Source: an uncultured virus (IMG/VR IMGVR_UViG_3300035520_000941)
Lineage: Duplodnaviria > Heunggongvirae > Uroviricota > Caudoviricetes
Virus record (IMG/VR): IMGVR_UViG_3300035520_000941
DNA: 64,000 nt
Strand: one strand, 5' to 3'
The notes beneath the pieces were generated by a model. It was not told where the DNA came from, did not search any database, and saw only the letters and a list, made by a program, of their open reading frames with translations. The position numbers were made by a program, and so were the translations under genes. The stretch's first letter is position 1, and each line of letters opens with the position of its first letter. Of this stretch, positions 5,198 to 61,585 are shown in pieces.

Positions 5198-5218
5198 TTA
5201 CATATATATAATAAAATC

Positions 5219-5362
5219 TATAGCGTAGTTAAATGATACTTCATAGATGAATAAGACAAATACTATTATTTTAAATTGAAATTAAAAAATACTCGCTAAA
5301 TTTTCAATGTAATATATATACGCAATTACATACAAAAAAAGTCATTTAACGACAATTCTATA
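5219..5362 (+). ncRNA. Y-RNA-like element 2
   Basis: TATAG/CTATA and GTTAAATGA/TCATTTAAC helices around CGTA//GACAATT loop, TACTTCA motif; covaries with element 1. Confidence 0.75.
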
Positions 5363-5372
5363 AGTTTTATTG

Positions 5373-5408
5373 AAAATGGTGTGATAAATAGTCACACTAT
5401 TTTATTTT
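5373..5408 (+). terminator. Intrinsic terminator-like hairpin between Y-RNA-like elements and Ro60
   Basis: AAAATGGTGTGA/TCACACTATTTT stem followed by U-rich tail. Confidence 0.55.
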
Positions 5409-5438
5409 ACCTAAAAATAGCAAAAAAGGAGAACAAAA

Positions 5439-34923: not shown

Positions 34924-36765
34924 TTATCTTCTATATGGGTCTATATTTGTTTTAACACTTGAATTTTTGATTATATCATAAGAATAAGCATATCTTAAAG
35001 CATCACAATTTTTGACAACCATTCCATTTGCAATATAATTATGATATTTTTCAACATTCATATTGTATACATCTTGTTTATCTTTCTCTTTGTGAATATC
35101 TTTTACTTTTGATGTTGATTTATACATATTGTTATCAACAATAATAACAACATCATTATTATTTATATCAATCAATTCTTTAAATCCATTTTCTGTTAAA
35201 ACTGGGTGATTATATGTTCCTCTTAAAACACTCCCATTTTCTAATTCCAATCTATAAATTTCAGCGTTTTTTTGTGTGAGTGTTACACCATTAAAACATG
35301 AAAACATAAGTTCTTTTCTTTCTAAATCATAACAATAACACATGCCAGTTTTACCCAACAAATTTTTTATAGGATAATCCCCGTAAAAAGTCTTGACAAT
35401 TGTATCACCAGTTAGGCACAAGTGATTGTATTTGTCAATTGGTATTTCTATAGGCTCACCATATTTATTTGTTTTCCATACATAATTTTCTAATTCAAAT
35501 TGCATTTCTTTGCAAGTCTTATCAACTACTATTCTAAAACCTCTTAGCCAGTCAATACCAACTTTAACAGAGTTTTTACCTTTTCTTGCTCTATATGGAT
35601 TAGCCCCACATTCTCTTAATTGCTTTATCATATCTTCGTTTCTATCACAAATGATAGGGTAACTACCAACTTTGCTCCTTATTTGTGTCCATAACTCGGC
35701 TATGCTTATTTCATTCATTTTAAATTCATCAAATATATAAATCGTTTTATTTTTCATATCTAATGAAGTTTTTATATAAGCATGCTCATCAATTGCACCA
35801 CCAAAGTCAAGCCCGTTTCTAAGTATTTTGAAGTCTTTAATCTTATCAGATAAATCTTCAACAAACCAATTCTTGCCTTTTTGATAAACTGTTTTACCTA
35901 AAGAACCCCAATTTCCATTAACATAAACTTCTCTTTGTACTGGGTCTTTTGTGTTTTCTAGTTTAATAATATCGTCTACTGATAAAAATTTATTATCACG
36001 ATAAGTCGTTTTTAAAATGCAAAATGTTTCAACTCCAGTTTCTCTAGTAATTTTTCCGTAATCGTCCATTACATCATATTGCACTTTTTCTTCATAATGT
36101 ACTTCCCTATCATTATCTTCAAAGTGGCTTATGAAAAATCTCTTGAATATCCAATGTGACTTATCAATAGGGTTGAACATCAATGTTGTTCTTTTTGGTA
36201 ATATTTCTTTTGTTTCTTGTTTACCATTTTTCTTATAGCAAATCCCCCTTTGACGTATTCTTAATTGCTCAAAGTCTTTTTCCTTTGTTTCTGTTGCCTC
36301 TTCCACAATTACATCGGTAAATGTTCCGTCTAAAGGTACTATTGACTTGACACTTTCAATATCATCAAGACCAATGAATAATATTTGTCGATTGTTCTCT
36401 TTGCACGTTATAGACATAGGGTTCTTCTTGCATATAAATTTATCTTGCAATCCAAAATCATTTATTTTTCTTAATAATTCTGTATATACAGAGTTTTCTA
36501 GTGTGTTTTTCTTTTGTCGTGCTATTAAAAAATTTCTGCCTTGTAGCCATACATCAAGTATCGTTCTTTGAAATATAAAATGTGACTTACCACTTGAACC
36601 ACCACCAAAGAATATTTGAACATTTGTATTGTCAAATAAAAATCTTCTATAAGGTTCGTTTATTTGTTCCCAAGTAATCCCACCTATTATAATCCCAAGA
36701 CTATTTTTTAAAGCAACTATATAATCTTGTTCATTTTGACTTAATCTTTTATTGCTTGTTGTCAT
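34924..36765 (-). CDS. terL: Terminase large subunit (PBSX-like) containing an intein
   Basis: Walker A GGGSSGKS, IVEEATE, MFNP, GLDFG, NHL/CDALRY. Confidence 0.95.
   Translation of the reverse strand: MTTSNKRLSQNEQDYIVALKNSLGIIIGGITWEQINEPYRRFLFDNTNVQIFFGGGSSGKSHFIFQRTILDVWLQGRNFLIARQKKNTLENSVYTELLRKINDFGLQDKFICKKNPMSITCKENNRQILFIGLDDIESVKSIVPLDGTFTDVIVEEATETKEKDFEQLRIRQRGICYKKNGKQETKEILPKRTTLMFNPIDKSHWIFKRFFISHFEDNDREVHYEEKVQYDVMDDYGKITRETGVETFCILKTTYRDNKFLSVDDIIKLENTKDPVQREVYVNGNWGSLGKTVYQKGKNWFVEDLSDKIKDFKILRNGLDFGGAIDEHAYIKTSLDMKNKTIYIFDEFKMNEISIAELWTQIRSKVGSYPIICDRNEDMIKQLRECGANPYRARKGKNSVKVGIDWLRGFRIVVDKTCKEMQFELENYVWKTNKYGEPIEIPIDKYNHLCLTGDTIVKTFYGDYPIKNLLGKTGMCYCYDLERKELMFSCFNGVTLTQKNAEIYRLELENGSVLRGTYNHPVLTENGFKELIDINNNDVVIIVDNNMYKSTSKVKDIHKEKDKQDVYNMNVEKYHNYIANGMVVKNCDALRYAYSYDIIKNSSVKTNIDPYRR
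35008..35418 (-). mobile_element. 137-aa mini-intein in TerL
   Basis: CLTGDT start, TYNHPV block B, DVYNMNVEKYHNYIANGMVVKN|C end; no endonuclease domain. Confidence 0.9.
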
Positions 36766-39894: not shown

Positions 39895-40012
39895 AAAAAA
39901 ATTAGGACGTACATATTATTATACGTCCTATAAAAAAACTGGAGGTAAATTTTTTTTCAACACTCAACCAACGGCAGAAGAAAAAAGTATTAATTAGTAA
40001 TTTTCATTACTA
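39895..40012 (-). ncRNA. Candidate ~118-nt sRNA with anti-Shine-Dalgarno ACCUCC
   Basis: TTTACT-17-TATAAT; TAGGACGTA/TACGTCCTA terminator; no ORF. Confidence 0.55.
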
Positions 40013-40112
40013 CATATATTATATACCTTAAGGAACAAAAAGTAAATATTATTTAAAAAGTAACTTGATATTTGTTATGAAAAGTTTTATAATATAGGTG
40101 AGGTGAGATAAG

Positions 40113-40766
40113 ATGAATGAAAATCAAGAATGGAAAAAGATTAATGGTAAAGACTTTGGATTATTTTTAGGGGATAATGAATACTTTATTTCTAATAATG
40201 GTGATGTATGGAGTGAAAAAAGCCAAAGAATATTAAAAAGAAGTATGAACAATAACAAACAAACTGTAGCAATCACAACAAAGAACGGGAAATATACAGA
40301 AACAAAACATTTATATGTTCATATATTATTGTATTTCTACTTTGTAGAAAAATATGACAAAAGCAAATATTCTATAGGCTTTAAAGATAATGATAGTCAA
40401 AACGTCACTATAGAAAACCTAATCAAAGAAGAAAAATACAGTGGTAGCAAGGAAACAGAAAGAAGAAACAAAATAAGCCTTGCAAATACTGGCAAAAAAA
40501 GAACAAAAAGACAAAAAAGATATATGAGCAAGAGAAAAAAAGAAACAATCACCCAAGAAACAAGAGATAAGATATCTCAATCAAGAATGGGTGCAAACAA
40601 TCCAAAGGCAAAGAAAGTTATAAAAAAGGATTTAAAAGGTAAGATTGTAGAAATCTATGATACTTGTAGAATTGCTGAAGATATGAACAACTTTGCTAGA
40701 AACACATTATCTTCAAAATGTAGAATGAATGCTCAATATAAAGGGTTTATATGGAGTTATAAATAA
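40113..40766 (+). CDS. NUMOD4/degenerate HNH/NUMOD3 homing-endonuclease-like protein
   Basis: EWKKI..Y.ISNNG.V.S, FKDNDSQNVTIENL, ETRDKISQSRMG repeats. Confidence 0.7.
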   Translation: MNENQEWKKINGKDFGLFLGDNEYFISNNGDVWSEKSQRILKRSMNNNKQTVAITTKNGKYTETKHLYVHILLYFYFVEKYDKSKYSIGFKDNDSQNVTIENLIKEEKYSGSKETERRNKISLANTGKKRTKRQKRYMSKRKKETITQETRDKISQSRMGANNPKAKKVIKKDLKGKIVEIYDTCRIAEDMNNFARNTLSSKCRMNAQYKGFIWSYK

Positions 40767-40904
40767 TCACCATGAAAATATTGGTGATTTTTTTATTTCT
40801 ATAGAAAATTGGCACGCAATCAAAAATACTTAGTATACTAATTATTGTAATTATCGTAAATAAAGAAAAACCCCAAATCTTTATCAAGTGCAGACATTTC
40901 TGTT
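40765..40904 (-). ncRNA. Candidate ~140-nt sRNA
   Basis: TTGTTT-17-TATAAT (40911-40939); ends at AATCACCA/TGGTGATT hairpin shared with 40113..40766. Confidence 0.35.
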
Positions 40905-40952
40905 TGCTATATTATAGTTTATATTCATAAAATAAACAAATATATCTTTAAG

Positions 40953-41022
40953 AAAATAAAAATGAGCCTTTATCGGCTCATGCGTAAGGATGATTTTCAA
41001 AAATGAAATACTTTTTTGAAAC
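40953..41022 (-). ncRNA. Candidate ~70-nt sRNA
   Basis: TTGAAT-17-TATAAT with extended TG; 5' hairpin, AAUCAUCCUUACGC linker, AUGAGCC/GGCUCAU terminator. Confidence 0.55.
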
Positions 41023-41240
41023 AAATTCATTATAGCATTTATCTATAACAAATTCAATATCATTTTTAATATAAAATAAAAAAGGGGGATAGTATTTCTA
41101 CTCGCCCTATGCCCCATTAGATAGATTTTTTGTAGATAGATTGAAAAAAGATGAAAGAAATTGAAGAACTACTGAATAATAATACTTCGATTTATAAAAC
41201 CTATCTAGGCGATAACCAAATTATGATTAAATTTTTTTAT

Positions 41241-41329
41241 TGGCGATATGCAATGGACTCGAACCATAACGACAATGAGCCGTCCCATTCCTTAGCAGGG
41301 AAGTCAAGAACCTTTCTTGTTTACATACC
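41241..41329 (-). tRNA. tRNA-Ser(GCT)
   Basis: GGTATGT/GCATATC acceptor + G-CCA, loop CT-GCT-AA, long variable arm GACGG/TTGTC, GGTTCGAGTCC T-arm. Confidence 0.9.
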
Positions 41330-41773
41330 AGATAATGGGTGCAGATTGAGGAGCATCAACAATTATAAACTATCCATCAGCAAATAGTAATAATTTAGCA
41401 CCCATTAAGTATGAGTAATGCACTTGTAGTTACAAGTAGGATAATACGCACGGCAAGAACATATTACCCTAAGACATAATAACATATATATTTTTAAAGT
41501 TGAGAAATACAAAGAAATCTTTTTCTGAATAATCGCCATACACCAACCATTACCACTATATGTAAGTTTAAGAGAAATATATGTATTTATATGTTATTAT
41601 GCTTTACGATAATATCTTTTACAATATCCTTTTACCCTAGTACCTTTGCTTGGTACACGTATATATTAACATTTTATTGTTAAATTGTCAACCATTATAA
41701 CATTAAATTGTTAATTATTTATTTTTTTAAAAAATGTATTGATATTTTTAGAAACAAGGTATACAATAGGTGA

Positions 41774-42280
41774 TGTAAAATAAAATAAAAAAAGACTAAG
41801 CAATACCAGTACTATGCTTAATCTATTAACTATTATACTTAAAATGTTATAAAAGTCAATAGAATAATTCAAATATTGGAGGAATTGCTTAAAAAAGTTA
41901 TTTCTTTTATTTTTTACTTCAAAATCTAATATAATGCTTGATGAGGGTATCTATGAAAATATGTTACTAGAATAGGCAAGTTGTGTTGTAAACCGAGGCA
42001 CATTTTCAAATTTCGGTCGTGTTCATATTCGTCATAGTGGAATTGGGATATGACATAAGGTCAAAGTGAAATCTACGTCACACCACTGAATAAGTAGGGG
42101 AGGAAATGCTTGGTATCGTGAGATACGGCGAGTCACAACGTTTAGTTTATGGGCAAGTATATTAATGTGACCCTACACTCATTCGACGACTTACTGCGAC
42201 GAAAGAGAATAAAGACCCTTTTTTCTAGGGTCTTTTTCTATCCTCTTCTCTAACTCCAACTCTGAAAGAGTTGGGGTTTT
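41774..42280 (+). ncRNA. ~500-nt structured non-coding transcript (candidate replication primer RNA)
   Basis: TTGATA-17-TACAAT promoter; GC-richer than flanks; many helices, GUGA and GAAA tetraloop hairpins; no ORF. Confidence 0.6.
41785..41826 (-). ncRNA. ~40-nt antisense countertranscript to the 5' end of the 41774 RNA
   Basis: TTGACT-16-TATAAT (41832-41859); AGATTAAGCA/TGCTTAGTCT stem + U7. Confidence 0.65.
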
Positions 42281-42455
42281 ATATTATATAATATATACAA
42301 TTAAATATATAATATGTATAATTAAATATATAATATATTACAAATAAATATATGTAAGGATACAAATTATATATATAAATATATATATTTATATTTACAT
42401 TTATAAATAAATAATATATATTTATATTAAATAAAAGAATATATATAATATAGTA
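42281..42455. other. Extremely AT-rich TA-dinucleotide tract (DUE-like)
   Basis: Only a handful of G/C in ~175 nt. Confidence 0.6.
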
Positions 42456-42512
42456 TACAAAAAAACGCAAATTTTGGTATTTACTTTTGCGAAAATGGGG
42501 GCATGGTTAAAT

Positions 42513-43112
42513 ATGAAATATTACGCTGTTATTAATGGTAGAGAAACGGGCATTTTTCTAACATGGGAAGATTGCAAAAAGCAAGTATATAAATTCCCAA
42601 ATCCTATATACAAGTCGTTTTTGACTAGGGAACAAGCAGAGGATTATATAAAAGAATATGGCAAAGATAAAACGACAATCATAAATTTGAAAGATACTTT
42701 AGTGGCATATGTTGACGGTAGTTTCAATAACAAAACTAGGGTATACGGCTATGGCTGTGTTTTGATATATAATGATGAAATAGTCGAAAAATTGAGTGGC
42801 AATGGAAACAACAAGGAATATGCAAGCATGCAGAATGTTGCAGGTGAAGTCCTAGCAAGCCTAAAAGCCACGGAATATGCTATAAAGCATGGTTATAAGT
42901 CCCTTATGATATATTATGACTACATTGGTATAGAATATTGGGTGACGGGGCAATGGAAAGCCAAAAAGCAAGGCACAATTGAGTATAAAGCCACAATGAA
43001 CGCTTATAAGAATTTCTTGAAAATAAATTTTGGAAAAATAAAGGCTCACACTGGCGATAAATATAATGAAATGGCAGATGAATTGGCAAAAATGGGTAGT
43101 GGTGTGATGTGA
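42513..43112 (+). CDS. rnhA: Ribonuclease HI with N-terminal hybrid-binding (viroplasmin-like) domain
   Basis: YYAV..GR..GIF.TW..C..QV; YVDGS, NVAGE, YYDY.GI, KAHTGDKYNEMADELAK. Confidence 0.95.
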   Translation: MKYYAVINGRETGIFLTWEDCKKQVYKFPNPIYKSFLTREQAEDYIKEYGKDKTTIINLKDTLVAYVDGSFNNKTRVYGYGCVLIYNDEIVEKLSGNGNNKEYASMQNVAGEVLASLKATEYAIKHGYKSLMIYYDYIGIEYWVTGQWKAKKQGTIEYKATMNAYKNFLKINFGKIKAHTGDKYNEMADELAKMGSGVM

Positions 43113-43522
43113 AATCACCAAAAAATGGATATTTTACGACAAAATGACGATATTTAGATAGGGTATAATTGAATTTGCCCTATTTTTTATTGCCAAAATG
43201 GGGATATCTTGATAAAAAATTAACAAGCAAGGGTGAAAATGGGCAATATTATTTTAAAATCGACTATTTTTTCTTGGATTGTAGGAAAGGCTAGGGAGCG
43301 TTCAATTAAATTGATTTTATTATATATATAATAATATATATTATTGGGTTTTGAGTTGGGGCAAAAAATACCCAAAGTGAACGTTTTTAGACAATTTGAG
43401 CCGTTTTTGAAAGTTTCCTATAATCTTAATTGCCTTATTTTGGAAAGTGGCTAGGATTGTTTGAAATTTCAATTTTCGATAGAAAAAAATATTTTAAATC
43501 CACTTTTTCCTAAAATCAACAC

Positions 43523-43671
43523 AAAAAAATATAGGAAACCAGTTTTTAGCCAGTCCCCTATATTCCACCAAAAATAGAAAAAAATTAATTGATTGTAGAA
43601 AGATGAGTTATACATAACCATTTTGCCAGTTCTTGACAATGTATTCGATAATGTAATGGTCTAACATTACC
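43523..43671 (-). ncRNA. Candidate sRNA 3 of tandem array
   Basis: TTGCTT-17-TATAAT; AATATAGGGGACTGG/CTGGTTTCCTATATT terminator. Confidence 0.55.
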
Positions 43672-43697
43672 ACTACTATTATATAATATCCCAATAT

Positions 43698-43851
43698 AAA
43701 AAGCAACACATTTTTATACGCAATTTTTTACCCCGTGTTGCTCTCTGCAAACTTATTGCCAACCAGTTACTTGTTTAGGCTCGTTCTCTCAAATTAAAAT
43801 AAAACCTTTCAAAATATTTCGCATTAGGTTCGATTGGCTCTTAATTCGCTA
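43698..43851 (-). ncRNA. Candidate sRNA 2 of tandem array
   Basis: TAGAAA-17-TATAAT with extended TG; AGCAACAC/GTGTTGCT + U-run. Confidence 0.5.
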
Positions 43852-43889
43852 TAAATTATTATACCACACCTTATCCCTATTTTCTATAT

Positions 43890-43986
43890 AAAAAAAATAC
43901 AGAGTATCTTCCGATACCCTATATTTAGCCCGTACCTCAATCAGAGTAGATTGTTCAAATCAAATGGTCGCCAACTCCATTTGATA
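43890..43986 (-). ncRNA. Candidate sRNA 1 of tandem array
   Basis: TTGAAT-17-TATAAT; ATCAAATGG/CCATTTGAT hairpin; GGAA-tetraloop terminator. Confidence 0.6.
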
Positions 43987-44251
43987 TCATATATTATAAT
44001 ATATTAGCCCTTAATATTCAATAGGATTTTTGATTTTATACAGAAAAAAATATTTTGAATTCGATTTTTGAAAAAATAAGAAAAATTGGGTGGGGAACGA
44101 TTAATGTTGGAGAGCGGTTGTCAAGAAAAATACCCCCCTTTTCAAAATTTGAAAAAATAATAAAAAATTATCATAATGATAAAAAATATTTTTATTTTTT
44201 CGAGTGTCATTGTTATACTATGAGTGTACTTTTCATTAAAGACATGTTACA

Positions 44252-44279
44252 ACTTCGTATAATATCTATTATGTGAATT
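44252..44279 (+). other. dif: dif-like XerCD recombination site
   Basis: ACTTCGTATAA-TATCTA-TTATGTGAATT; 23/28 identical to B. subtilis dif as recalled (ACTTCCTAGAA-TATATA-TTATGTAAACT). Confidence 0.85.
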
Positions 44280-44505
44280 TATTAGGGCTATGTTATAACG
44301 CTATTCATTAGAATATATATAGCGTGCCTTTATATAGGCTTTAAATAGGCTTTTTAAGGGCTTTTATAGGGTATCTTTATTAATGTAGGCATAATATAAA
44401 ACGTTGCTTATATCGTAAATATGGGGCTTTTTTAGTACCCTTATAGTAGGCTATATATAGGTATGCAATGGGGCTTATTTAGGATTATCACAAATACAAA
44501 TAAAT

Positions 44506-44524
44506 AATAATGATTATTATTATC
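44506..44524. promoter_or_regulatory. Fur-box-like site
   Basis: AATAATGATTATTATTATC, 16/19 to GATAATGATAATCATTATC; AT-rich background weakens it. Confidence 0.4.
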
Positions 44525-44541
44525 TTGAATATGGAACAATC

Positions 44542-44568
44542 TTAGCACTCACAATAACATAGTGCTAG
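44542..44568. promoter_or_regulatory. CIRCE-like HrcA operator
   Basis: TTAGCACTC-N9-TAGTGCTAG versus consensus TTAGCACTC-N9-GAGTGCTAA. Confidence 0.6.
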
Positions 44569-44616
44569 ATAGTTCGTACACGAACAATCTAATCGCGAGG
44601 GTCTGGAAGTGTCATT

Positions 44617-45310
44617 TTATCCAAAAATATATAATATATAATATATAATATATAATACATTATATAAAACAATATAAATAACTATATAATTATTATATAT
44701 ATAATAATAGTACATATAATACATATAATACATATAAGAATATATACATATATATAATATATTACTACATGTTATATATGTTGCTATATATATAGTAATA
44801 AGATACATATATACCCTATATATACATACATATTATATATAATAGTATTAAATACTATATAATAAAGTTCATTATATTACATATGAATATATCCAGATAT
44901 ATATAGAATATATATAACTCTACATATAATATAAAGCAATATATAATATAGTATGTAATACTACATAATATATATACAATTATATGCCATATATAAGCAT
45001 ATATTATATATTGGAATATTGCATATAATAATATATGTAGTAATATAACATATTATCATATATAAAATATGTCGTAAAATATAATAGTATATAAAATAGA
45101 CTATTATATAAACAAATATAATTGATTATATAATATGGTGTATTTAATCATATATTTAATTTTACAACATATATAAATAAACGATATATATTATAATGCT
45201 ATATATTCAAAAAAGCATATACATATAAAAATGGTTATACATATACTTTTTATACCTATTTAAAAAACATGATACAAATATATGAAAAGTACCATACTTT
45301 TATATATAAA
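44617..45310. other. ~700-bp TA-rich non-coding tract
   Basis: Dominated by TATA/ATAT; no credible ORF. Confidence 0.6.
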
Positions 45311-45416
45311 TACCATGCTTATATTTCAAGCGTGAATTATTTGAATAATTCAAAAGGCTTTATTTTTTGATTTTACAAGGGATATATAAAAAAGGCTCAT
45401 ATATGAGCCTTTAGGG

Positions 45417-45509
45417 TTATTTGATTTCTATAGCCAATTCAAATAAGGCAATAATCCCAAGAATTGGCAAGAACATCATAATAACCAGCATTTTAAGAAG
45501 TGAACGCAT
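45417..45509 (-). CDS. 30-aa hydrophobic peptide
   Basis: GAGGTGA RBS; MRSLLKMLVIMMFLPILGIIALFELAIEIK*; followed by terminator 45388-45412. Confidence 0.6.
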   Translation of the reverse strand: MRSLLKMLVIMMFLPILGIIALFELAIEIK

Positions 45510-46500
45510 TTAATCATCACCTCTTTCCATTTCAAAAATATAAAACATTATATCTTCAATTTTCAAAATATGTAGTTGATAGAGCAATTTAATTACTCTA
45601 TCTTTCAAAATAGCAAAATTCAAAATAACCACTTACAACATTTAATGAAGTAAATAATCTTTCTTGCATATTATTGCATAAAATTAAATTTTCATTTTTA
45701 ACTAATTCAGCATAACTAATTCTTTTAACTTTCATTTTTCCATCCTCTTCTTTCTAGCGATTTCTACCGCTTTTCTATAATACAATCTTATACTATATAC
45801 TGTATAAAGTCAACACTTTTCTAACAAATATTAAAAAAAATAATTTTTTATCACTGTGATAAAATTTTTAAACGAAAAATCACCAATTTTACCAATTTTT
45901 AGGAATTTCATAATAGATTATGTGATTTTAGGATTTTGACAAATAGTCAAAAATTCAAAAAAGCCTTATTATATCTATATTTTTTTAATTTTGTACCCTT
46001 AAAGTGGTAAAAAATCATCACATATTTTTTTCGGCTCAGACTAAAAAATGCGTATAATCGTTGTTTGGAGTTTTTAGGTATTATTTATCACGGAATAGAA
46101 AAAACGCCTTAGAACGCAAATTTAAGCTATTTAGAGCTATATTGGTATATTGCCGACTTTTTGACATTGCTTAAAATTGAAATATGGGCTATTTTTTGAA
46201 AACTACATAAAACAGAAAGGAAAACCATGATAAACAATATCAATATAACGCTATGTAGTATTGAATACTACATATAGATTTGATAGAAAATTATCACATT
46301 GATAATATTTATAAATCGTAAAAATTAAATATCACAATGCAAACAATATATCAAAGTGACTTGAAAATATCACGGCTATAAAAATATATCAATATGATAC
46401 AAACGTATCACGCTTAAAAGAATATATCACGATTATATATTTTTATTTGGATAATATTTTTTTATTACGCTAAGAAATGAAAAAAAAGACTAGATAAAAT

Positions 46501-46857
46501 CTAGTCGATTACGTACCCTCTTTTATTTAACTTATGACCTGCTTTCAAATCATTGTAGATTTGAATAATTCTTGTCTTTGAAGCTGTGATTTGAATAACA
46601 TCTCTTTCTAAATCATAATCGTGATAGAGTTCTCTTGTTTGAACCCCTAAATCATTGAAAGCATGTTTATTAGAGCATTCAATCGTATGATTACTAACTC
46701 TATAATTAACACCATTTATATTGAAATAATAACTATCATTTGTACGACTTGACTGTATCCCGTTATCAATGCAAAAATCTTCTATCTCTTTCATTTTGAT
46801 AGCAAACGCTTTTGCTTTTGATTTTGAAGGTCTATATCTATATGTCATATAATCCAC
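46501..46857 (-). CDS. Conserved hypothetical phage protein
   Basis: SYYFNINGVNYRVSNH motif. Confidence 0.75.
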   Translation of the reverse strand: MDYMTYRYRPSKSKAKAFAIKMKEIEDFCIDNGIQSSRTNDSYYFNINGVNYRVSNHTIECSNKHAFNDLGVQTRELYHDYDLERDVIQITASKTRIIQIYNDLKAGHKLNKRGYVID

Positions 46858-46867
46858 CTTATCACTA

Positions 46868-47089
46868 TTATAATAGTGCCTTTCTTAGATTTTGATTGTT
46901 CCAATCTAAATTTTTTATGTATAGAACATTATGTAAACGTTCTATAGCATACATATTTTTTTTGTTTAATGCTTGATAGAATAAGTCAATTAATCTATCA
47001 TCATCTTTGATTTTTTTACTGATTAATCCACTAATAATAACTAACCTGGCATGTTTTTGTTCAATACTCATTTCATTCCATTTTTTCAT
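46868..47089 (-). CDS. Hypothetical protein
   Basis: GAGGAGG RBS and upstream promoter 47124-47151. Confidence 0.65.
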   Translation of the reverse strand: MKKWNEMSIEQKHARLVIISGLISKKIKDDDRLIDLFYQALNKKNMYAIERLHNVLYIKNLDWNNQNLRKALL

Positions 47090-47408
47090 CTTTCAAATCC
47101 TCCTCATCTATTTCTATACTACCATTATATACTTTTTGAAGTATATTACAAGCATTTTCTTAAATTTTCATAAAATGAAAATGTAACAAGTTTTTATCAT
47201 TGTAATAATTATTTTTATCTTGCATTATATGATTGTATGTACTATCATAATAATGATGTATATTTAGGATTTGAACAATCCAAACAAAATTTATAGTACT
47301 ATGTTATATAGTTTCCAATACAATATTATGTAGTTTTGAATACTACATAAAATGTTAATGGATACTACATCATGGAACATCAACACCACATAAAGTGGTA
47401 TCGAAAAC

Positions 47409-47629
47409 CCGTGGAAGTAGTTACAAGTACCGTGGCATGAGTTACAAGCAGTGGGGGAAGTTACAAGCAGTGGGGGAAGTTACAAGCAGTGGGGGAAGTT
47501 ACAACTCTATAGGCATGCGAAAAGTGAAAGGAAATGTTGCAAGCCCATAGGGAGCGAGAGAGTGAAAGGAAATGTTGCAATTCTGCCGTACAAAATGTTG
47601 CAACTTGTACTTTACAAATGAGTTGCAAG
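47409..47629 (+). repeat. Iteron-like array with GTTRCAA core (9 copies)
   Basis: 3 x AGTTACAAGCAGTGGGGGA (47440-47496), 2 x AGTGAAAGGAAATGTTGCAA, further single cores. Confidence 0.85.
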
Positions 47630-47728
47630 TGATATAATAGGGAGTGCATGGAATGGACAAAATAGGCGAAAACCTATCACACATGCAATATCATCATGGA
47701 AAAAGAGCCTAAATTTATAGACTCTTTT

Positions 47729-47968
47729 TTATTTCTTTTTCTTTTTTGATTTTCCACCTCTTAAGGCATTCTTGATTGTTCCTTGCTTATTGCCAGATTT
47801 ATCAAGTTTTTCCAAAATATCCTTGTCGGTTTTCTTGTTCAATTTTAATCGAACAGATGTAGTGTTTTTTCGGTCATACTTTTCAACAGTATCTCGGTGT
47901 TTTTTGGTAGTCTTATAACCACCACCTTTCTTATTATTTGTGCTTTCATTAGTGCTTTTCTTAGACAT
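47729..47968 (-). CDS. Small basic ribbon-helix-helix-like DNA-binding protein
   Basis: KYDRKNTTSVRLKLNKKTDKDILEKLDKSGNKQGTIKNALR (strand-helix-helix pattern). Confidence 0.65.
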   Translation of the reverse strand: MSKKSTNESTNNKKGGGYKTTKKHRDTVEKYDRKNTTSVRLKLNKKTDKDILEKLDKSGNKQGTIKNALRGGKSKKKKK

Positions 47969-48030
47969 AAAAATTCAATCCTTTCTTTTTAAATTTTCTA
48001 ATTTTCAAAATCATAAATAGTGAAAATATA

Positions 48031-48156
48031 TAAGTATCACTTACGACCAGTATTTGACACGATTATATAAGTATCACTTACAATCACTCTATAACACATA
48101 CATGCGTAAGTATCACTTACTTTTTTAACACGCATGCACACATAAGTATCACTTAC
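48031..48156. repeat. Four exact copies of 14-bp TAAGTATCACTTAC
   Basis: Starts 48031, 48068, 48107, 48143; quasi-palindrome TAAGT-ATC-ACTTA. Confidence 0.9.
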
Positions 48157-48421
48157 ATTTTGTGCGATATAAAGCGATTTATTTATAAATAAAGCATAAC
48201 ACAATCTGGTTTTAAATTAAATAAAAAAGAGCAATAAATGAATATTGCCCTATTAAAATATATAAACCATAGAATAATGTCATATATGCCCTTAAAATGC
48301 GTTTTTAAAGCGTTTCAAGACACTTTGTAATATATCTTGAATAAATTATAGCATACTTATAAATATTCGTTAGAACGCAAATTTAAAGCAAATAACATTA
48401 TACATATTAAAACTCTTTGTT

Positions 48422-48880
48422 TTAATCCTTTGCCTTGTCTTTTTTGACTTTTCTAGTCGTTCGCTTTTTAGCAACTGTTTTTTTGCCTTTGCTATCATCA
48501 TTGTCATTTGATACTGGTTTATTCTCATCTGCTTTTTTTGAACATTTACAGTTACATTTCTTGATTTTTTCAAATTCATCAATAGCATTACTTAATCTTT
48601 CAATTTCATATTTTTGTTTGACTTTGGTTTTTTCTAGCCTTTCAATTTCATTATCTTGTTTGACCTTGATTTTTTCTAACAATACAATTTGTTCATTCTT
48701 TTCTTTCAATTCTCTTTTAAACCTACATCGTCCTTGTTCCACAATGTCATACTGGAGTTGCAAGTCCTCGTATTTTTTCTTAATCAATTCAATCTCTTTC
48801 TCTAATAAATCGTTGTGCCTTTTCAATGACACATTAGCCTTACTTAAATCTTCAATCATTTTTTGCTTTTTGCCTAACAT
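48422..48880 (-). CDS. Coiled-coil protein with basic tail
   Basis: RBS; internal repeat LEK.KVKQ..EIERL. Confidence 0.7.
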   Translation of the reverse strand: MLGKKQKMIEDLSKANVSLKRHNDLLEKEIELIKKKYEDLQLQYDIVEQGRCRFKRELKEKNEQIVLLEKIKVKQDNEIERLEKTKVKQKYEIERLSNAIDEFEKIKKCNCKCSKKADENKPVSNDNDDSKGKKTVAKKRTTRKVKKDKAKD

Positions 48881-49065
48881 TATATAAATTCTCCCTTCCT
48901 ATAAGCATTTTTCCATTTAATGCTATACTTTCATTATAATGCAACTACTATTATATTGTCTAACGTTATATTGTCGTTTTGAGTGCAATTTGACAATTTA
49001 TGTATAAATATGATAACATTTTAATTGTCTACTTGCTAATTAAATAAAAAAGGAGTGAATAACGG

Positions 49066-49704
49066 GTGAAGAATAACACTAGATTTATTAAATCAGTTAT
49101 TGTGATAGGCTTTTTATTTACAACAATAAGATTTAATACAGTAAGCACTTTTGGAGATTATGAATTAAATGATGTAGAAAGAAATAATTATGTAGAAGAA
49201 ACAATAAGTATTGAAAGTGCAAAAGAAGTTACAATAACCAAGCCAAAGATTGAGTTAAAAAAGATAAGCCTTAAAAAGAAATTTAGTGGTGTGAATAAGA
49301 CTTATATGGATTTGAAATGTATTACCAACAAATCATCTAAACAATACAAGATGAAAAGCGATTACAAATTGGATAGCAAAGGACATTACTATATCAATTA
49401 TAAGGACGAAAAATTCTATGTTGTGGCTTTAGGAAATTATTTTGGTAAGATTGGAGATAAGTTTAAAATAACATTATCATCTGGAAAAACCTTTTATGCA
49501 ATTAAAGGTGATACGAAAAGCAATAGACACACAAAAGAGCGTTACGCTCATAAAACAGATGGAAGTGTTATAGAATTTATCATCAATACGAAAGTCGCTA
49601 AGAAATATTATGGGTCGAACAATGGGTATGTATGCAACGGAAATTTAAACAACAGCGACTTGTGGAATGGAAAAATCGTGAATATATCAAAAGTAATTGA
49701 ATAA
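49066..49704 (+). CDS. Secreted/membrane-anchored cell-wall-hydrolase-like protein
   Basis: N-terminal signal; TYMD, YVVALG.YF, GDKF.ITL, IKGDTK, GSVIEFI motifs. Confidence 0.5.
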   Translation: MKNNTRFIKSVIVIGFLFTTIRFNTVSTFGDYELNDVERNNYVEETISIESAKEVTITKPKIELKKISLKKKFSGVNKTYMDLKCITNKSSKQYKMKSDYKLDSKGHYYINYKDEKFYVVALGNYFGKIGDKFKITLSSGKTFYAIKGDTKSNRHTKERYAHKTDGSVIEFIINTKVAKKYYGSNNGYVCNGNLNNSDLWNGKIVNISKVIE

Positions 49705-49730
49705 ATAACAAAAAAACATTATAATAATAA

Positions 49731-49876
49731 TGTGTTATAAGGACTAATTTCATATTGACTTTTTCTTCTTTTTGTATATATTTTTGATTACCTTTATATT
49801 TTTCTGTTGTTTTCCATTTTCCATTTTTAACCTTATAACGCACATGAGATACACATTAATTTGTGTATCTTTTTTT
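49731..49876 (+). ncRNA. Candidate ~145-nt sRNA with 88-nt U-rich loop
   Basis: TTGAAT-17-TATAAT; 12-bp closing stem; AGATACACA/TGTGTATCT terminator. Confidence 0.65.
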
Positions 49877-49949
49877 AATGATTAAAAAAATTTGATATAA
49901 TTGTTAAAAAAGTGTTGACTTTTCATTTACAATAGTTTAACATTAAATT

Positions 49950-50347
49950 GTCAAAGGGAGTTACCTAAGACAAAACGATTGTAAGAGTGACAACTGTATT
50001 ACAATCTATGACAACAAGGATAGACTTGTCGGCTAGGGCTTGCAATAGGTCGTTAAAAGGTGTAGAGCAAGCGAACTTAACTGTGTTGTGAAAGTTGAGT
50101 TGCCGTAAATCGGTGGGAGTGAAAACGTAGTATATTTCCTAAACGGCAGGACGTTATAATGCTTATACATTCTAGTCACTGTATAAGATACGTTTGGATA
50201 AGAGCATTGATTACTAGGCACGTTATAAGATTGGAAATGCAAGTTAGTTGTTCTTGTAGACTAATACCAATTACGTTGTGAGGGCAAATAAAAAAACAAC
50301 CCATTATCGAATTAAGATACACAAATAAAAAATGTGTATCTTTTTTT
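49950..50347 (+). ncRNA. ~395-nt multi-helix non-coding RNA
   Basis: TTGACT-17-TAACAT promoter, terminator 50314-50347, at least 8 helices, no ORF. Confidence 0.7.
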
Positions 50348-50425
50348 GCTTATTTGTTAAAAAAGTGTTGACATATACCACAAAAAGTATTATCATATAG
50401 GTGTAGAAAGAAAGAGGGAAGAAAT

Positions 50426-56794: not shown

Positions 56795-57910
56795 ATGAAG
56801 ATAAACATTAACAAAGATGAATTACTTGAAAACTTAAGAAAGGCAAATATGATTGTCAATAAAAGCCACCCTAACGAAGTGCTAAAAAACGTATTAATTG
56901 ATATTAAAGGTAGCACAATGGATTTAACGACAAGTGATGGAACAATGCGAACTATATTAAGTATTGAAGAAATAAATAGTGACGAAAATACAAGTTTTTG
57001 TGTCAATAGTCAATTGTTCTTAGATTGTTTGAAGAAGATTAATAAAAATGAAGTAACAATCAATACTAGTGATAAAGATTTTATCATCAAGAGTGGAAAT
57101 AGAAAGTTTAAATTGAATATTATTAGTAGTGATAAATACCCTAATTTTGCTGATAATGAAAATATTGGTATCATAATTATAAATGCAAACGATTTATTAA
57201 GAGGTGCTATGTCAACAGTTAAAACAGCCTCAAGAAATGAAACACGACCTATCTTAACTGGTATCAATCTAAGCAATAGCGAAGATTTAAAAAGCATTGT
57301 CTTAAGTGCAACAGATAGTTACAGATTATCAAAAATAACATTGCCAATTAGTAACAAATTAAATAAAAATATAAACGTTACTATTCCATATCAATTTTTT
57401 GAATATTTAAACAAAGTCATTGATGATAGCGAAGAAGAAGTTACAATCTTATTTAATGATACTGAAATAAAACTTGAATATAAAAATCAATATATCACAA
57501 CAAGATTAATTGATGGAAGTTATCCTAACATTAATAGAATTTTACAAGGTGAAAGAAGAAATAGAGTTAAAATCAACAAAGAGTATCTAAATGATATGAT
57601 TGAATGTTCATTCTTTAAAGATGATAAGAATTATATTATCACAATGGATTTTGATGATAATAAAATGACATTATTAAACAAGAATAACGAAATGGGCGAG
57701 TTTAAAGAAACTTATGAGATTGAACATAATGGAAATAATTTAAGCGTTTCCGTTAATGGTGAATACTTGAAACAAGCATTAAGCACATTTGAGAGTGATT
57801 ATGTCAATTTATATTTTGAGGATACACCTTTAAAACCTTTTGTAATTGTTGGTTGTGAAGATGTTGATAGAACGCTTATTCAATTAATGTTGCCAGTAAG
57901 AACGTATTAG
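56795..57910 (+). CDS. dnaN: DNA polymerase III beta sliding clamp
   Basis: 371 aa; TRPILTG, ATDSYRL, RLIDGSYP, NGEYL, LMLPVR. Confidence 0.95.
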   Translation: MKININKDELLENLRKANMIVNKSHPNEVLKNVLIDIKGSTMDLTTSDGTMRTILSIEEINSDENTSFCVNSQLFLDCLKKINKNEVTINTSDKDFIIKSGNRKFKLNIISSDKYPNFADNENIGIIIINANDLLRGAMSTVKTASRNETRPILTGINLSNSEDLKSIVLSATDSYRLSKITLPISNKLNKNINVTIPYQFFEYLNKVIDDSEEEVTILFNDTEIKLEYKNQYITTRLIDGSYPNINRILQGERRNRVKINKEYLNDMIECSFFKDDKNYIITMDFDDNKMTLLNKNNEMGEFKETYEIEHNGNNLSVSVNGEYLKQALSTFESDYVNLYFEDTPLKPFVIVGCEDVDRTLIQLMLPVRTY

Positions 57911-58046
57911 CGTATATTCAAAAATGCTGTTTTAAGGCATTTTAAGGGTTTTTAATTAAACACTATAAATTTATAAAGGAATAATAAAACGCTTGTCAAA
58001 AGCGTTTTAAACGCTGTTTAAGAGTAAAAAGTAAGGGAGTGGCAAC

Positions 58047-58730
58047 GTGAAAAGATATTATGTTTTAGACAAGAAAGATATTACAAATATTGTTGATGTT
58101 GGAGATAAGAAAACATTAATGAAAAAGTATAATTTTGAAGATGAAAAGAAGTTTATTTATGTAACAACTATAGGAACTGAATTTAATGGATATTATTTTA
58201 TTCCTACAGATGATGACAAGATACAAAGAGATGAGATGTTTGAGGACGTTTTATTTCATGTGAACGAAAAAGCAAATATTAAATATTATGTTAATTGCAA
58301 TGGCTTTTTCTTTTCTATTAATCAAAAAGGGCAAAAAAGAATGTTAAACCCGTGGTATGATAAAAGTTGCGATAAGTTGAAGTTAAAAATAGGCAAAAAA
58401 GGATATTATTGTGCCACGTTGATTGCTAAAACATTTAGAAAAGATGAATATAATGAAAAAGATATTATTTTGTATAAAGACAACAACCCCAAAAACTTAA
58501 ACTATAAGAATTTAGTTTTTGTAAGCAAAAGTTTCTTTGTAAACAATATTGCTAAAAGACATCCAAAAGCACGTAAATTAGGTGTATTTGATGAAAATAA
58601 TAATTTAATTAAACAATATGATAGTATCAGAAAAGCAAGTAAGGATTTATATGTTGATAGAAATTGCATTGTTGCAATCTTAAAAGGAAAAACTAAACAT
58701 AAAATGTTTGATATTAGATATATAGAATAA
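58047..58730 (+). CDS. Degenerate HNH / NUMOD1 protein
   Basis: LIAKTF, YKDNNPKN....NL, YDSIRKASKDL. Confidence 0.6.
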   Translation: MKRYYVLDKKDITNIVDVGDKKTLMKKYNFEDEKKFIYVTTIGTEFNGYYFIPTDDDKIQRDEMFEDVLFHVNEKANIKYYVNCNGFFFSINQKGQKRMLNPWYDKSCDKLKLKIGKKGYYCATLIAKTFRKDEYNEKDIILYKDNNPKNLNYKNLVFVSKSFFVNNIAKRHPKARKLGVFDENNNLIKQYDSIRKASKDLYVDRNCIVAILKGKTKHKMFDIRYIE

Positions 58731-58755
58731 TATTAATCAATTTTATGAAAAACAC

Positions 58756-58931
58756 TTTACATGGTTATATTTTGGTATTATAATAGTAAATGTAAATTAA
58801 ATAAAAAAGTCCAACAAGAATGAATGGGGTCATTCAAGTGAACTTTACAAGAGTATTTTATCATATAGATAATAAATATTCAATGAATTTCTCACTTAGT
58901 GAATACCCTTTCATTTAAGTGAGATTTTTTT
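58756..58931 (+). promoter_or_regulatory. Promoter + attenuator leader of replication operon
   Basis: TTTACA-17-TATAAT; terminator TCTCACTTA/TAAGTGAGA+U7; antiterminator 58819-58841. Confidence 0.75.
58799..58848 (-). ncRNA. ~50-nt antisense countertranscript of the attenuator
   Basis: TTGAAT-17-TAAAAT with extended TG (58855-58883); AAGTTCA/TGGACTT stem + U-run. Confidence 0.7.
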
Positions 58932-58950
58932 GTAGGAGGGAGGAAATTTT

Positions 58951-59277
58951 TTGAAGTTAAACAAGGAAAGGTGTATAGAGGCATTAGAGTTTTATCATAC
59001 TAAAATATCTGGCTATGAAAAAAGCATAACCTCATATACTATCCTAAAAAATTTGATTGATGAGTATTTTAATGATAAGTCTTTGAAATTTGAGGATTTA
59101 GAATTTGAAATGCCTATCTGGGATAGTAAGGATAAGGAATGGTGTATACTCAAAAATGCCACATCTTCATTATTTTTTGGTAAACAATATATTTCATTAA
59201 TTTGTTTTTCAAACACAAATGATATTGTTGACTTGGAATGGGAAGATGATAGATTTTATAGAAAGAAAAAGGAATAA
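58951..59277 (+). CDS. Hypothetical protein, paralog of 55043/55417
   Basis: GGAGG RBS + TTG; LKFEDL...PIWD...RFYRK. Confidence 0.7.
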   Translation: MKLNKERCIEALEFYHTKISGYEKSITSYTILKNLIDEYFNDKSLKFEDLEFEMPIWDSKDKEWCILKNATSSLFFGKQYISLICFSNTNDIVDLEWEDDRFYRKKKE

Positions 59278-59279
59278 AA

Positions 59280-59462
59280 ATGAATTTGACAAAAAAAGAA
59301 ATTGATATTCTCATTGAATTAGCAAGAGAGAAAAAAGATTATTGCGAAAAGAAAATGATATGGTATGAAAAAAATCATGAAATTGAAGAAGAAGAAAAAT
59401 ATAAATGGTTAACAAAAGAATACCTTATCATTATTCAAAAACTAAAAAATATGAAAGGGTGA
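59280..59462 (+). CDS. Hypothetical protein
   Basis: Short ORF in operon. Confidence 0.55.
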   Translation: MNLTKKEIDILIELAREKKDYCEKKMIWYEKNHEIEEEEKYKWLTKEYLIIIQKLKNMKG

Positions 59463-59468
59463 TTGTAA

Positions 59469-60107
59469 TTGTTAGCGATTAATGGATTTAATCAAGATAA
59501 AATGAATATATATAATATTGATGTTGCTGATACTTGCATTATTGACTACATTATTTATATTTATTCATGTGATATTGTGCCAAGTATTATTATTAATGAT
59601 ACAAAGTACATATCATTTAATAAAGAGAAAATTAATAAGAACCTAAACGCTTTAAATCTAAAAGAGCGTGGATTAGAGCAAAGAATTAACAATTTAATTG
59701 CAAGTGGGTTCTTTGAAAGGAATGTTAAATTTGTAGATAAAAAGAAACGTAGTTTCATAAAACCAACTAATTTATGCTTGTTTATTAAAGACTTTAGTTA
59801 TAACATTTATGAAGAATTTGTGAAACATGAATGTGCAGACTATAATAAAGAAGATGTTGAAAAAAGAACTATCAAAGTCAAACATCTTTATAAGGAGTGT
59901 AAACATGTTAAGTTCACTGATGAGGAATTAAGTAAACTTAAACAAGAATTTCCTTTTGATTATGAAACACAAATAATGAATTGCGAAAATTATTGTGAGT
60001 CAAAAGGTAAGAATTATTCCAATTATTTACAAACAATAAGGAATTGGAACAAAGGAAAGAAAAATATGAAAAATACAAATATTGATGTTGGAGGGCTTGA
60101 ATTTTAG
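59469..60107 (+). CDS. Putative replication initiator / replisome organiser
   Basis: INGFNQ N-terminus, wHTH-like segment, HVKFTDEE..KL...Y.ESKGK.Y.NY..TIRNW; upstream of helicase. Confidence 0.7.
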   Translation: MLAINGFNQDKMNIYNIDVADTCIIDYIIYIYSCDIVPSIIINDTKYISFNKEKINKNLNALNLKERGLEQRINNLIASGFFERNVKFVDKKKRSFIKPTNLCLFIKDFSYNIYEEFVKHECADYNKEDVEKRTIKVKHLYKECKHVKFTDEELSKLKQEFPFDYETQIMNCENYCESKGKNYSNYLQTIRNWNKGKKNMKNTNIDVGGLEF

Positions 60108-60110
60108 AAA

Positions 60111-60371
60111 ATGGAAGTGAACAAAATAAAATTAAGTCACGACCAATTAACAAGTATTTTTCAAGAATTACGCTTGTATTATCCTAATAACCCATACAAA
60201 GATTATAATGCGAATGAACTTAAAGTGATTTTAAAAATGTATTATGAGTCTTTGAAATATTATGATGAAAGTATAATACGAAAACGAATGACAAAGTATG
60301 TCGAAAAAGAAAAATTTTTTCCTCAAATTTGTGACTTAATCCCCCAAGAGAGCGATTTTAGAGGATATTAG
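60111..60371 (+). CDS. Helicase loader/inhibitor (SPP1 G39P-like)
   Basis: YYP...L..Y...KFFPQICDL; between initiator and helicase. Confidence 0.6.
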   Translation: MEVNKIKLSHDQLTSIFQELRLYYPNNPYKDYNANELKVILKMYYESLKYYDESIIRKRMTKYVEKEKFFPQICDLIPQESDFRGY

Positions 60372-60373
60372 AT

Positions 60374-61585
60374 ATGAACGAAACTGAATATGAATATGAA
60401 ATAATTTGTATGTTGATATGCAACCCCCAATGTATCAACGAATGTGAATTAGAGAGTAAACACTTTTCAAATGATTTTTATAAAAAGATTTACCCTTTAA
60501 TTGAAAAACAATACAAAGAAAAAGGGATTATAGATTTCTATGAAATAGAAAATAAATTTAGTGGCTTTTATTCTTTTGCGTTAGAATGTATAGAACATTA
60601 TGTTACATCTGCAAATTTACATTATTATATCGAAAAAGTTGAAAACAACTATAAATTAAGGAAATATAATGAAATAATTGATAAATGCAACAATGGTTAT
60701 ATAGATTTTGAAGAAATGCAAAATGAATTAGATAGCGTTAAAAATGAGTTTATTAAAACTGGTGATAAGAATAAATTGAGTGAAGAAGAAATTTATAGAG
60801 TTATCACAAAAGAGAATGAAATGCTTGAATTTGATAATTTTAAGCAATTAGAAAACAATATATCATTTATTAAAAATGGTATTCATGTTATTTCTGCACG
60901 TACAAGTGTAGGTAAAAGTGCTTTGGCAATCAATCTAATGAATGATTTGTCAAAAAAGTACAAGTGTATATATCTCAATATGGAAATGAATGAACAAAAG
61001 ATATATCAAAGAATGATTGCTTGTGAGTCGAATATTCCAATTAGCAATTTTACTAATTTAAGTGAAACGCAATCAAATACTATCAAAAGAACTATTAAAA
61101 ATATTCATAATAGAAATTGGAAAATCATGAACGGCTCAAAAAGTGTAAGAGGTATCAAGTCGATTATTGCTAGAGAGAGCAGAGATGAGCATTTGATATT
61201 ATTTGTCGATTACATTGGGTATGTGACAACTGGCAAAAAACAAAACGATAGAGAGCGTATTGGTGAGGCTGTAAGAGAGATACAATTAATGACAAAAGAT
61301 TATGATGTAACTGTATTTCTATTGGCTCAAATTAATAGAGATGGAAATGATGAGCCTACTTTAGTTAATTTGAAAGATAGTGGAGAAATTGAACAGAGTG
61401 CCGAAACTGTATTGATTTTACACAATACATGCAAAGACTTAAACGAAGAACAGCCAATTTATAGTATACTTGTACCCAAAAATAGAAATGGAAAACAAGG
61501 AAAATTAGAAATAAAATTCAATAAGCCTTGTCAAAAATTTGAAGAAATAGTAGAGGGTTATGGTTATGGAAACAGAGTTTATTAA
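60374..61585 (+). CDS. dnaB: DnaB-like replicative helicase
   Basis: SARTSVGKS, LNMEM, FVDYI, LAQINR, LKDSGEIEQSA, KNRNG. Confidence 0.95.
   Translation: MNETEYEYEIICMLICNPQCINECELESKHFSNDFYKKIYPLIEKQYKEKGIIDFYEIENKFSGFYSFALECIEHYVTSANLHYYIEKVENNYKLRKYNEIIDKCNNGYIDFEEMQNELDSVKNEFIKTGDKNKLSEEEIYRVITKENEMLEFDNFKQLENNISFIKNGIHVISARTSVGKSALAINLMNDLSKKYKCIYLNMEMNEQKIYQRMIACESNIPISNFTNLSETQSNTIKRTIKNIHNRNWKIMNGSKSVRGIKSIIARESRDEHLILFVDYIGYVTTGKKQNDRERIGEAVREIQLMTKDYDVTVFLLAQINRDGNDEPTLVNLKDSGEIEQSAETVLILHNTCKDLNEEQPIYSILVPKNRNGKQGKLEIKFNKPCQKFEEIVEGYGYGNRVY

Follow-up and report, generated by a model that had tools for sequence, protein, structure and literature searches.

The closest described counterpart of the locus reported here is the repC attenuator of pT181, a Staphylococcus aureus plasmid, with its countertranscripts RNAI and RNAII (Novick et al. 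1989, as cited in PMC4878617). There the antisense RNA kisses a 5' sensing hairpin in the leader, the antiterminator sits at the base of this hairpin, and interior loops are required (PMC4878617). Reporter fusions in E. coli have served to assay attenuators of this type (PMC4878617). In the Inc18 plasmids pIP501, pAMbeta1 and pSM19035 the 136-nt RNAIII attenuates repR, and the repressor CopR, acting at the sense promoter, is also needed (PMC4981023). The satellite phage P4 derives its immunity from the CI RNA, through RNA-mediated premature termination of its own replication genes. CI RNA is processed from a leader transcript of the same strand and pairs with the sequences seqA and seqC (PMC4825925 for both statements).

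The phage is an uncultivated, tailed, AT-rich gut phage, of which a stretch of 64 kb (the window) was analysed. The G+C content is 21-32% along the window and about 27% overall. Head, tail, lysis and packaging genes occupy 9-40 kb on the minus strand. The plus strand carries the early and replication genes, which begin at about 49 kb, extend to the window end and continue at 1-9 kb. In the latter group, a gene for the DNA polymerase III beta clamp (56795-57910) is followed by a free-standing HNH/NUMOD homing endonuclease gene (58047-58730) and a 220-nt gap, after which the proposed operon begins (58951-61585, all plus strand). Its first gene is orf108 (58951-59277, with a TTG start at 58951), followed by orf60 (59280-59462), orf212 (59469-60107), a G39P-like helicase loader (60111-60371) and a DnaB helicase (60374-61585). 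More plus-strand genes, among them a DNA methylase gene, lie further downstream. The original prediction had placed an initiator, a loader and DnaB behind the leader, and these genes were recovered with unequal strength. DnaB is clear (E 5.8e-41), the loader lies just over the threshold (23.6 bits vs a cut-off of 22), and the C-terminus of orf212 is weakly DnaD-like, of the replisome-organizer kind (E 2.8e-5). The 5' part of orf212 (59486-59637) also carries a 23-nt direct repeat, the copies 129 nt apart and 87% identical, with overlapping inverted repeats; these repeats are a candidate replication origin within the initiator gene.

The gap between the endonuclease gene and orf108 holds what appears to be a countertranscript-driven transcription attenuator of the replication operon, a reading that is given an even chance of being correct. 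A sense promoter, P(+), is predicted on the plus strand from a -35 element TTTACA (58756-58761), a 17-nt spacer and a -10 element TATAAT (58779-58784), with a start at about 58791. It agrees with the consensus at 11 of 12 positions, is intergenic, ranks first among the 29 promoter-like sites in 57500-60500, and is among the 21 best-scoring promoter sites of the window. From P(+) to the TTG at 58951 runs an untranslated leader of about 160 nt. Near its end lies an intrinsic terminator (58890-58931, plus strand) with a stem of 14 bp and one bulged U (58890-58903/58910-58924), a UACCCU loop and a U7 tract (58925-58931). At -14.4 kcal/mol it ranks second of 396 hairpin-plus-U-run candidates in a custom scan that covered every U-run on both strands of the window. 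Sites at or below -14 kcal/mol number 3 in the native window, against a mean of 0.6 in 8 dinucleotide-preserving shuffles of it. The strong leader terminator of the original prediction is confirmed by these values, and all the other elements it named were likewise found where it had placed them.

Immediately 3' of the terminator U-run follow the Shine-Dalgarno sequence AGGAGGGAGG (58934-58943) and the TTG start codon (58951), together spanning 58934-58953 on the plus strand. Besides P(+), the promoter-site scan found no strong promoter between 58931 and the operon genes. P(+) is placed upstream of the strong terminator, not behind it; the usual order is seen at 50.3 kb, where a terminator (50308-50348) is followed by a promoter (50368-50396). 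A second plus-strand promoter-like site is found within the leader (TTTACA-18-GATAAT, 58844-58873). It is weaker (10/12), and its -35 region repeats that of P(+) (direct repeat D2, 72%). If active, this inner site would give an RNA of about 50 nt that consists of the terminator hairpin alone.

On the minus strand an opposing promoter, P(-), is predicted from a -35 element TTGAAT (58883-58878), a 17-nt spacer with an extended TG (58863-58862) and a -10 element TAAAAT (58860-58855), with a start at about 58848. It has 9 of 12 consensus positions plus the TG, scores 11.0 and falls among the best 40 of the 100 sites listed for the window. Promoter sites of 9/12 quality are common in such AT-rich DNA (29 found vs 23.1 expected in 3 kb). 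The predicted countertranscript of about 49 nt (58799-58848, minus strand) is a single hairpin (58846-58805) with the loop CCCCAU, followed by U6AUUU. The hairpin folds at -13.5 kcal/mol on this strand (z -3.9), and none of 200 shuffles is as good. As a terminator it scores -9.6 kcal/mol and ranks 28th of the 396 hairpin-plus-U-run candidates; sites at or below this value number 28 natively vs a mean of 6.75 in shuffles (128 kb of strand), and the chance of such a site per 100 nt of one strand is about 0.5% by our own arithmetic. A simple terminator scan listed neither this hairpin nor the leader terminator, probably because of its stem and loop rules, and both came from the custom scan. The claim that an opposing promoter at 58855-58883 yields a hairpin RNA of about 50 nt across the antiterminator thus has its parts present in the sequence, as a predicted promoter and a predicted RNA of about 49 nt.

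Pairs of outward-pointing terminators 10-150 nt apart are rare, with 3 in 609 kb (the window and related loci). The two others are not analogues. The pair at 42211-42276 lies upstream of promoter-like sites (42294-42449), which is the usual order of terminator and then promoter, and the pair in L067, a locus with a related DnaB, was inspected and found not to be analogous.

The leader is predicted to have two competing folds. Its 5' part forms the putative sensing hairpin (58805-58848, plus strand), with interior loops and the apical loop AUGGGG (58824-58829), and this hairpin contains both the antiterminator and the predicted target of the antisense RNA. The antiterminator, or preemptor (58818-58841, plus strand), pairs with 58892-58916, that is with the 5' arm of the terminator, its loop and the start of its 3' arm. 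The sequence AATGAATGGGGTCATTCAAGTGA at 58819-58841 has 58892-58915 as its partner, and the full alternative pairing joins 58801-58841 with 58892-58933 through 34 bp. That an upstream segment is complementary to the terminator loop and 5' arm was part of the original prediction and holds in the pair table. The duplex of the upstream leader with this arm and loop reaches -15.6 kcal/mol vs -8.6 +/- 2.3 kcal/mol in shuffles, and 22 of 2000 shuffles attain this energy. Of the natural terminator candidates in the window, 28 in number, none has a stronger such duplex. A middle hairpin (58851-58881, plus strand, -6.9 kcal/mol) juxtaposes the competing segments, and the same DNA carries the antisense promoter. 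Over the whole leader, the long-range fold is the minimum free energy (MFE) structure, with -37.8 kcal/mol (z -3.8; 0/200 shuffles as good).

Folding of growing transcripts, started at 58791, gives the order in which these structures would be favoured. The 5' hairpin is the MFE structure of the nascent transcript until its 3' end reaches about 58906. For 3' ends at 58910-58922 the antiterminator is the MFE structure (-20.6 to -27.5 kcal/mol). A 3' end at 58924 completes the terminator stem, and the energies are then -30.2 kcal/mol for the terminator conformer and -28.1 kcal/mol for the antiterminator. Later, when the upstream A-run has the U-run available as a partner, the long-range fold is again the favoured one. 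If 58800-58848 is masked, as a mimic of the antisense-bound state, only the terminator forms. At the decision point the two conformers therefore differ little in energy, and the antiterminator has a head start, as a kinetic attenuator needs. The barrier from the 5' hairpin to the antiterminator is estimated at 9-11 kcal/mol (findpath, an upper bound). Taken together with the 2 kcal/mol by which the terminator is more stable, this barrier makes much termination possible without the antisense RNA.

Both hairpins are more stable on the strand that has the U-run at their 3' side. The 5' hairpin folds at -8.7 kcal/mol on the plus strand vs -13.5 kcal/mol on the minus strand, in agreement with the earlier remark on G.U pairs in this stretch, and the terminator at -15.2 vs -12.4 kcal/mol. 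The loops AUGGGG and UACCCU and the antisense loop CCCCAU are all G/C-rich within DNA of about 27% G+C, and they are mutually complementary, as kissing-loop systems require. Seen as a whole, 58801-58933 is an imperfect palindrome of 133 nt, the arms of which are similar terminator-type hairpins pointing outwards and the centre of which holds promoter-like sites on both strands. Since the two stems are similar, complementarity between the whole hairpins is automatic, and for this reason the statistics of the antiterminator duplex and of the minus-strand hairpin are not independent.

As a positive control, pT181 (L131) was passed through the same scripts as the phage locus. The attenuator terminator scores -13.3 kcal/mol in pT181 and -14.4 in the phage, the countertranscript terminator -9.5 and -9.6 kcal/mol, and the antiterminator duplex -12.3 and -15.6 kcal/mol, the last being reached by 56 of 2000 shuffles in pT181 and by 22 of 2000 in the phage. 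The strand asymmetry is similar as well: the region of the countertranscript terminator folds at -6.9 (plus) and -14.4 (minus) kcal/mol in pT181 and at -8.7 and -13.5 in the phage, and the region of the attenuator terminator at -14.6 and -9.4 in pT181 and at -15.2 and -12.4 in the phage. On every in-silico measure used, the phage locus equals or slightly exceeds the experimentally established pT181 attenuator.

The layout is also that of pT181. A sense promoter is followed by a 5' sensing hairpin with the antiterminator and then by an intrinsic terminator directly before a replication gene. An opposing promoter inside the leader is predicted to give an antisense RNA that is complementary over its full length and ends at a terminator of its own, and the sensing hairpin has interior loops. 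The differences concern size and context. The phage antisense RNA would be a single hairpin of about 49 nt that serves both as the target-binding element and as the terminator, and 47 nt separate the two terminators, compared with about 170 nt in pT181. Furthermore, the phage unit fronts a multi-gene operon (organizer, loader, helicase), whereas that of pT181 controls one plasmid Rep gene.

RNAIII of the Inc18 plasmids has several stem-loops. The phage locus, as predicted, would share with these plasmids the principle that an antisense RNA makes transcription end prematurely in a replication-gene leader. In both cases the sense and antisense promoters converge, and interference between them is therefore possible. 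Unlike in Inc18, no CopR-type repressor gene adjoins the sense promoter of the phage, the upstream neighbour being the HNH/NUMOD endonuclease gene, and the predicted RNA is one hairpin of about 49 nt, compared with the 136 nt of RNAIII.

The antisense RNA of bacteriophage P1 is reportedly longer, opposing the P53 transcript of this enterobacterial phage-plasmid. An antisense RNA directed at a phage replication operon is the feature that the predicted system would share with the P1 lytic replicon (Heinrich et al. 1995, as cited in PMC9948254). The difference from P4 is that the RNA of the present phage would be transcribed as a true countertranscript, from a promoter of its own; P4 moreover is a temperate element of enterobacteria.

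If the leader works in this way, host RNA polymerase would start at P(+), at about 58791, and the nascent leader would first fold the 5' hairpin (58805-58848). The emerging 5' arm and loop of the terminator (58892-58916) would then invade this hairpin, beginning at a weakly paired AAGUGA toehold and at a GGG:CCC match between the loops. With the antiterminator formed, polymerase would read into orf108 and the genes for the organizer, the loader and DnaB. Meanwhile P(-), present on every genome copy, would make the antisense RNA of about 49 nt. Its CCCCAU loop would kiss the AUGGGG loop, and the antisense RNA would go on to pair with the 5' hairpin. With the antiterminator so occupied, the terminator (58890-58931) would form and a leader of about 140 nt would be released. 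More genome copies, and with them more antisense RNA, would mean less expression of the replication genes per template.

Overall, the pT181-type reading put forward in the original prediction is partly supported. The part that stands is structural: each of the five defining parts is there, correctly ordered and on the expected strand, their scores are like those of pT181, and the folds are switch-like. Promoter firing, pairing of the two RNAs, termination in response to this pairing and the biological role are what we infer from that arrangement. Gene-dosage feedback on phage replication is a reasonable inference by analogy with plasmids; its copy-number logic is less obvious here because no lysogeny or plasmid-maintenance gene was found in 64 kb. 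The ORFs scanned (86 against PHROGs and 70 against Pfam, two largely overlapping sets) gave no match to an integrase, to a partition protein or to a large repressor. The window is without about 10 kb of the longest contig on record (73.6 kb), and these negative results cover the 64 kb.

The further suggestion that the antisense RNA provides superinfection immunity in place of a CI repressor is unsupported, as no integrase, partition or other lysogeny function was seen among the ORFs scanned in 64 kb. The use of an RNA instead of a repressor for immunity has a precedent only in the satellite phage P4 (PMC4825925). A bolder version, possible but doubtful, is that the leader acts as an RNA-only timer, a plasmid-type copy sensor that would shut the replication operon as genomes accumulate and may block superinfecting genomes. 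The terminator hairpin would in that case be a cis-encoded mimic of the antisense RNA, and it may also be produced alone, from 58844-58873, as a second repressor RNA of the same strand.

The leader has no recognisable relatives in the collections searched. Rfam contains ctRNA models for pT181-type plasmids. A search of 57500-60000 against Rfam at E up to 10 returned mir-217 at E 1.7 as the sole match, and the whole window gave 0 matches at the gathering score. Against plasmids, the leader matched 17 records by blastn, all with at most 32% coverage and with a best E shown of 0.05, that is at chance level; no sequence relation to the pT181 or Inc18 leaders was detected by either search. The mechanism would be of the pT181 type, yet the leader is no homologue of those of pT181 or Inc18.

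Phage sequences were no more informative. The region 58000-60400 had no blastn match in phages, and the nearest virus record (G001, a 32.8-kb fragment) had no match to the leader. An exact 24-mer was found in one viral contig only, which is identical (0 differences over 5,938 nt). Both in 85 fetched loci and in an enlarged set of 130 loci (0.97 Mb), nhmmer searches with the leader recovered only the 4 self loci; other blastn matches to the 85 were short and AT-rich, with E of at least 0.008. The terminator stems, with the loop left free, were found in 0 of 185,579 species genomes, and the window itself holds neither a second copy of the leader nor a target-like match to it. The two proteins tested from just downstream of the leader are equally isolated: orf108 and orf212 each matched only itself in a set of 5.8 billion proteins and in viral contigs.

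DnaB, for its part, has relatives. The closest proteins are 69%, 59% and 59% identical, and the closest named relative is that of Clostridium phage Maintenon, with 43.7% identity. The DnaB alignment supplied 80 metagenome loci (at most 51% identical) and 45 genome loci (at most 46% identical). In bacterial assemblies the relatives (at most 46%) are found in Erysipelotrichaceae and other gut Bacilli. The loci that were inspected are organised differently. One (L008) is a temperate phage with an integrase, another (L067) has a hairpin over the ribosome-binding site, and phage Maintenon has no intergenic leader. In L067 (DnaB 31% identical) the segment 1109-1260 follows a different plan: an ORF of 58 codons, ribbon-helix-helix-like by eye, is followed by a bidirectional terminator, and the 3' arm of the next hairpin covers the Shine-Dalgarno sequence of the next gene, before a U-run and an ATG. 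The replication module of this locus is preceded by a leader of another design.

The most serious competitor of the attenuator is control without an antisense RNA, which is unlikely. The promoter-terminator unit would be real, and read-through would be set by a fixed degree of partial termination, by a phage protein (a processive antiterminator or RNA-binding protein) or by folding kinetics, P(-) being weak, incidental or a source of convergent interference. The layout of a strong promoter and an early terminator is that of lambda PR'-tR', where Q acts. It suits this explanation that P(+) and the terminator are the two strongest elements of the locus and P(-) has only 9 of 12 consensus positions, and also that the terminator conformer has a slight energetic advantage at the decision point, with a refolding barrier of 9-11 kcal/mol. 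It leaves unexplained, however, why a minus-strand hairpin and U-run follow the predicted start of P(-) when no minus-strand gene lies nearby, and why the minus-strand form of this hairpin is the more stable by about 5 kcal/mol. Nor was any antiterminator-like protein recognised among the ORFs scanned in the window.

It is less probable still that the locus makes small RNAs which act elsewhere, on host or phage targets, with the replication genes expressed by leak-through. These RNAs could be the P(+) transcript of about 140 nt, or two divergent paralogous hairpin RNAs of about 50 nt, one from P(-) and one running from 58844-58873 to 58931. A palindrome of 133 nt with outward terminator-type hairpins and central promoter-like sites on both strands would fit such a pair, and the window contains further candidate small-RNA units. 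The inner plus-strand promoter, however, has G at the first -10 position and an 18-nt spacer, and the leader has neither a further copy nor a target-like match elsewhere in the window. The position also counts against this explanation: the terminator adjoins the first ribosome-binding site of the operon, and no other strong promoter lies from 58931 to the genes.

Several other features were noted in the window. An orthologue of Ro60 (5439-6890; Pfam TROVE 1.7e-35 and vWA_Ro60 4.8e-11) is preceded by an ORF-free gap of 536 nt (region 4903-6890). Within this gap lie two promoters, one of which (4934-4962) is the best of the window and the other of which is at 5063-5091, and plus-strand terminators (5014-5035, 5377-5399); the gap is a candidate location for Y-RNA-like genes beside a phage Ro, and Rfam gave no match in it. 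The region 40000-50000 has few ORFs and many strong minus-strand hairpin-plus-U-run sites, including the best of the window (45317-45268, -14.8) and those at 43562-43530 and 43923-43898. Within it, 44809-46500 is 1.7 kb without any ORF of 50 codons, and three promoter-like sites spaced 19 nt apart at 46411-46345 suggest tandem repeats. The motif ACTTTACA, considered as an operator, occurs at 7 sites vs 4.5 expected and is not enriched, since 16 of 100 shuffles reach this count.

A role of the palindrome at the level of DNA is improbable. It could belong to an origin, serve as a cruciform or protein-binding site, mark the scar or boundary left by the endonuclease insertion (58047-58730), or be a miniature inverted-repeat element. 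The location is suggestive: this long AT-rich palindrome immediately precedes the genes for the organizer, the loader and the helicase, and it lies 26 nt downstream of the free-standing HNH/NUMOD endonuclease gene. Nevertheless, the leader has no iterons, and better repeats are found inside orf212 (59486-59637). The palindrome is present once in the window, its terminator stems occur in 0 of 185,579 species genomes, and its plasmid matches do not exceed chance. The U-runs, like the strand-specific G.U asymmetry, indicate a function at the level of RNA.

Homing endonuclease genes occur elsewhere in the window. Those of the HNH/NUMOD kind are two (40113-40766 and 58047-58730), and a GIY-YIG gene (24440-25369, minus strand) apparently splits the tape-measure gene (21270-26389), as the ORFs that flank it both match tape-measure families. 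A small-terminase-like ORF (4192-4902, plus strand) lies about 30 kb from the gene of the large terminase (34924-36765, minus strand).

Type I toxins are hydrophobic. Leader-peptide attenuation or a type I toxin-antitoxin pair based on the 32-codon ORF 58820-58918 is very improbable: this ORF does start inside the antisense target and has its stop codon in the 3' arm of the terminator, but its ATG lies within the 5' hairpin stem and has no Shine-Dalgarno sequence before it, and the peptide MNGVIQVNFTRVFYHIDNKYSMNFSLSEYPFI is not hydrophobic. What remains of the probability falls to a chance arrangement of the parts.

Even if the attenuator works as read here, it would reveal no new principle. 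Switches of the pT181 type have until now been studied in small Gram-positive plasmids. If the reading is true, one of them stands before the helicase and loader module of a gut phage that shows no lysogeny genes in 64 kb, and its antisense RNA and attenuator form a compact pair of about 49 nt, unrelated in sequence, which is a possible orthogonal RNA regulator.
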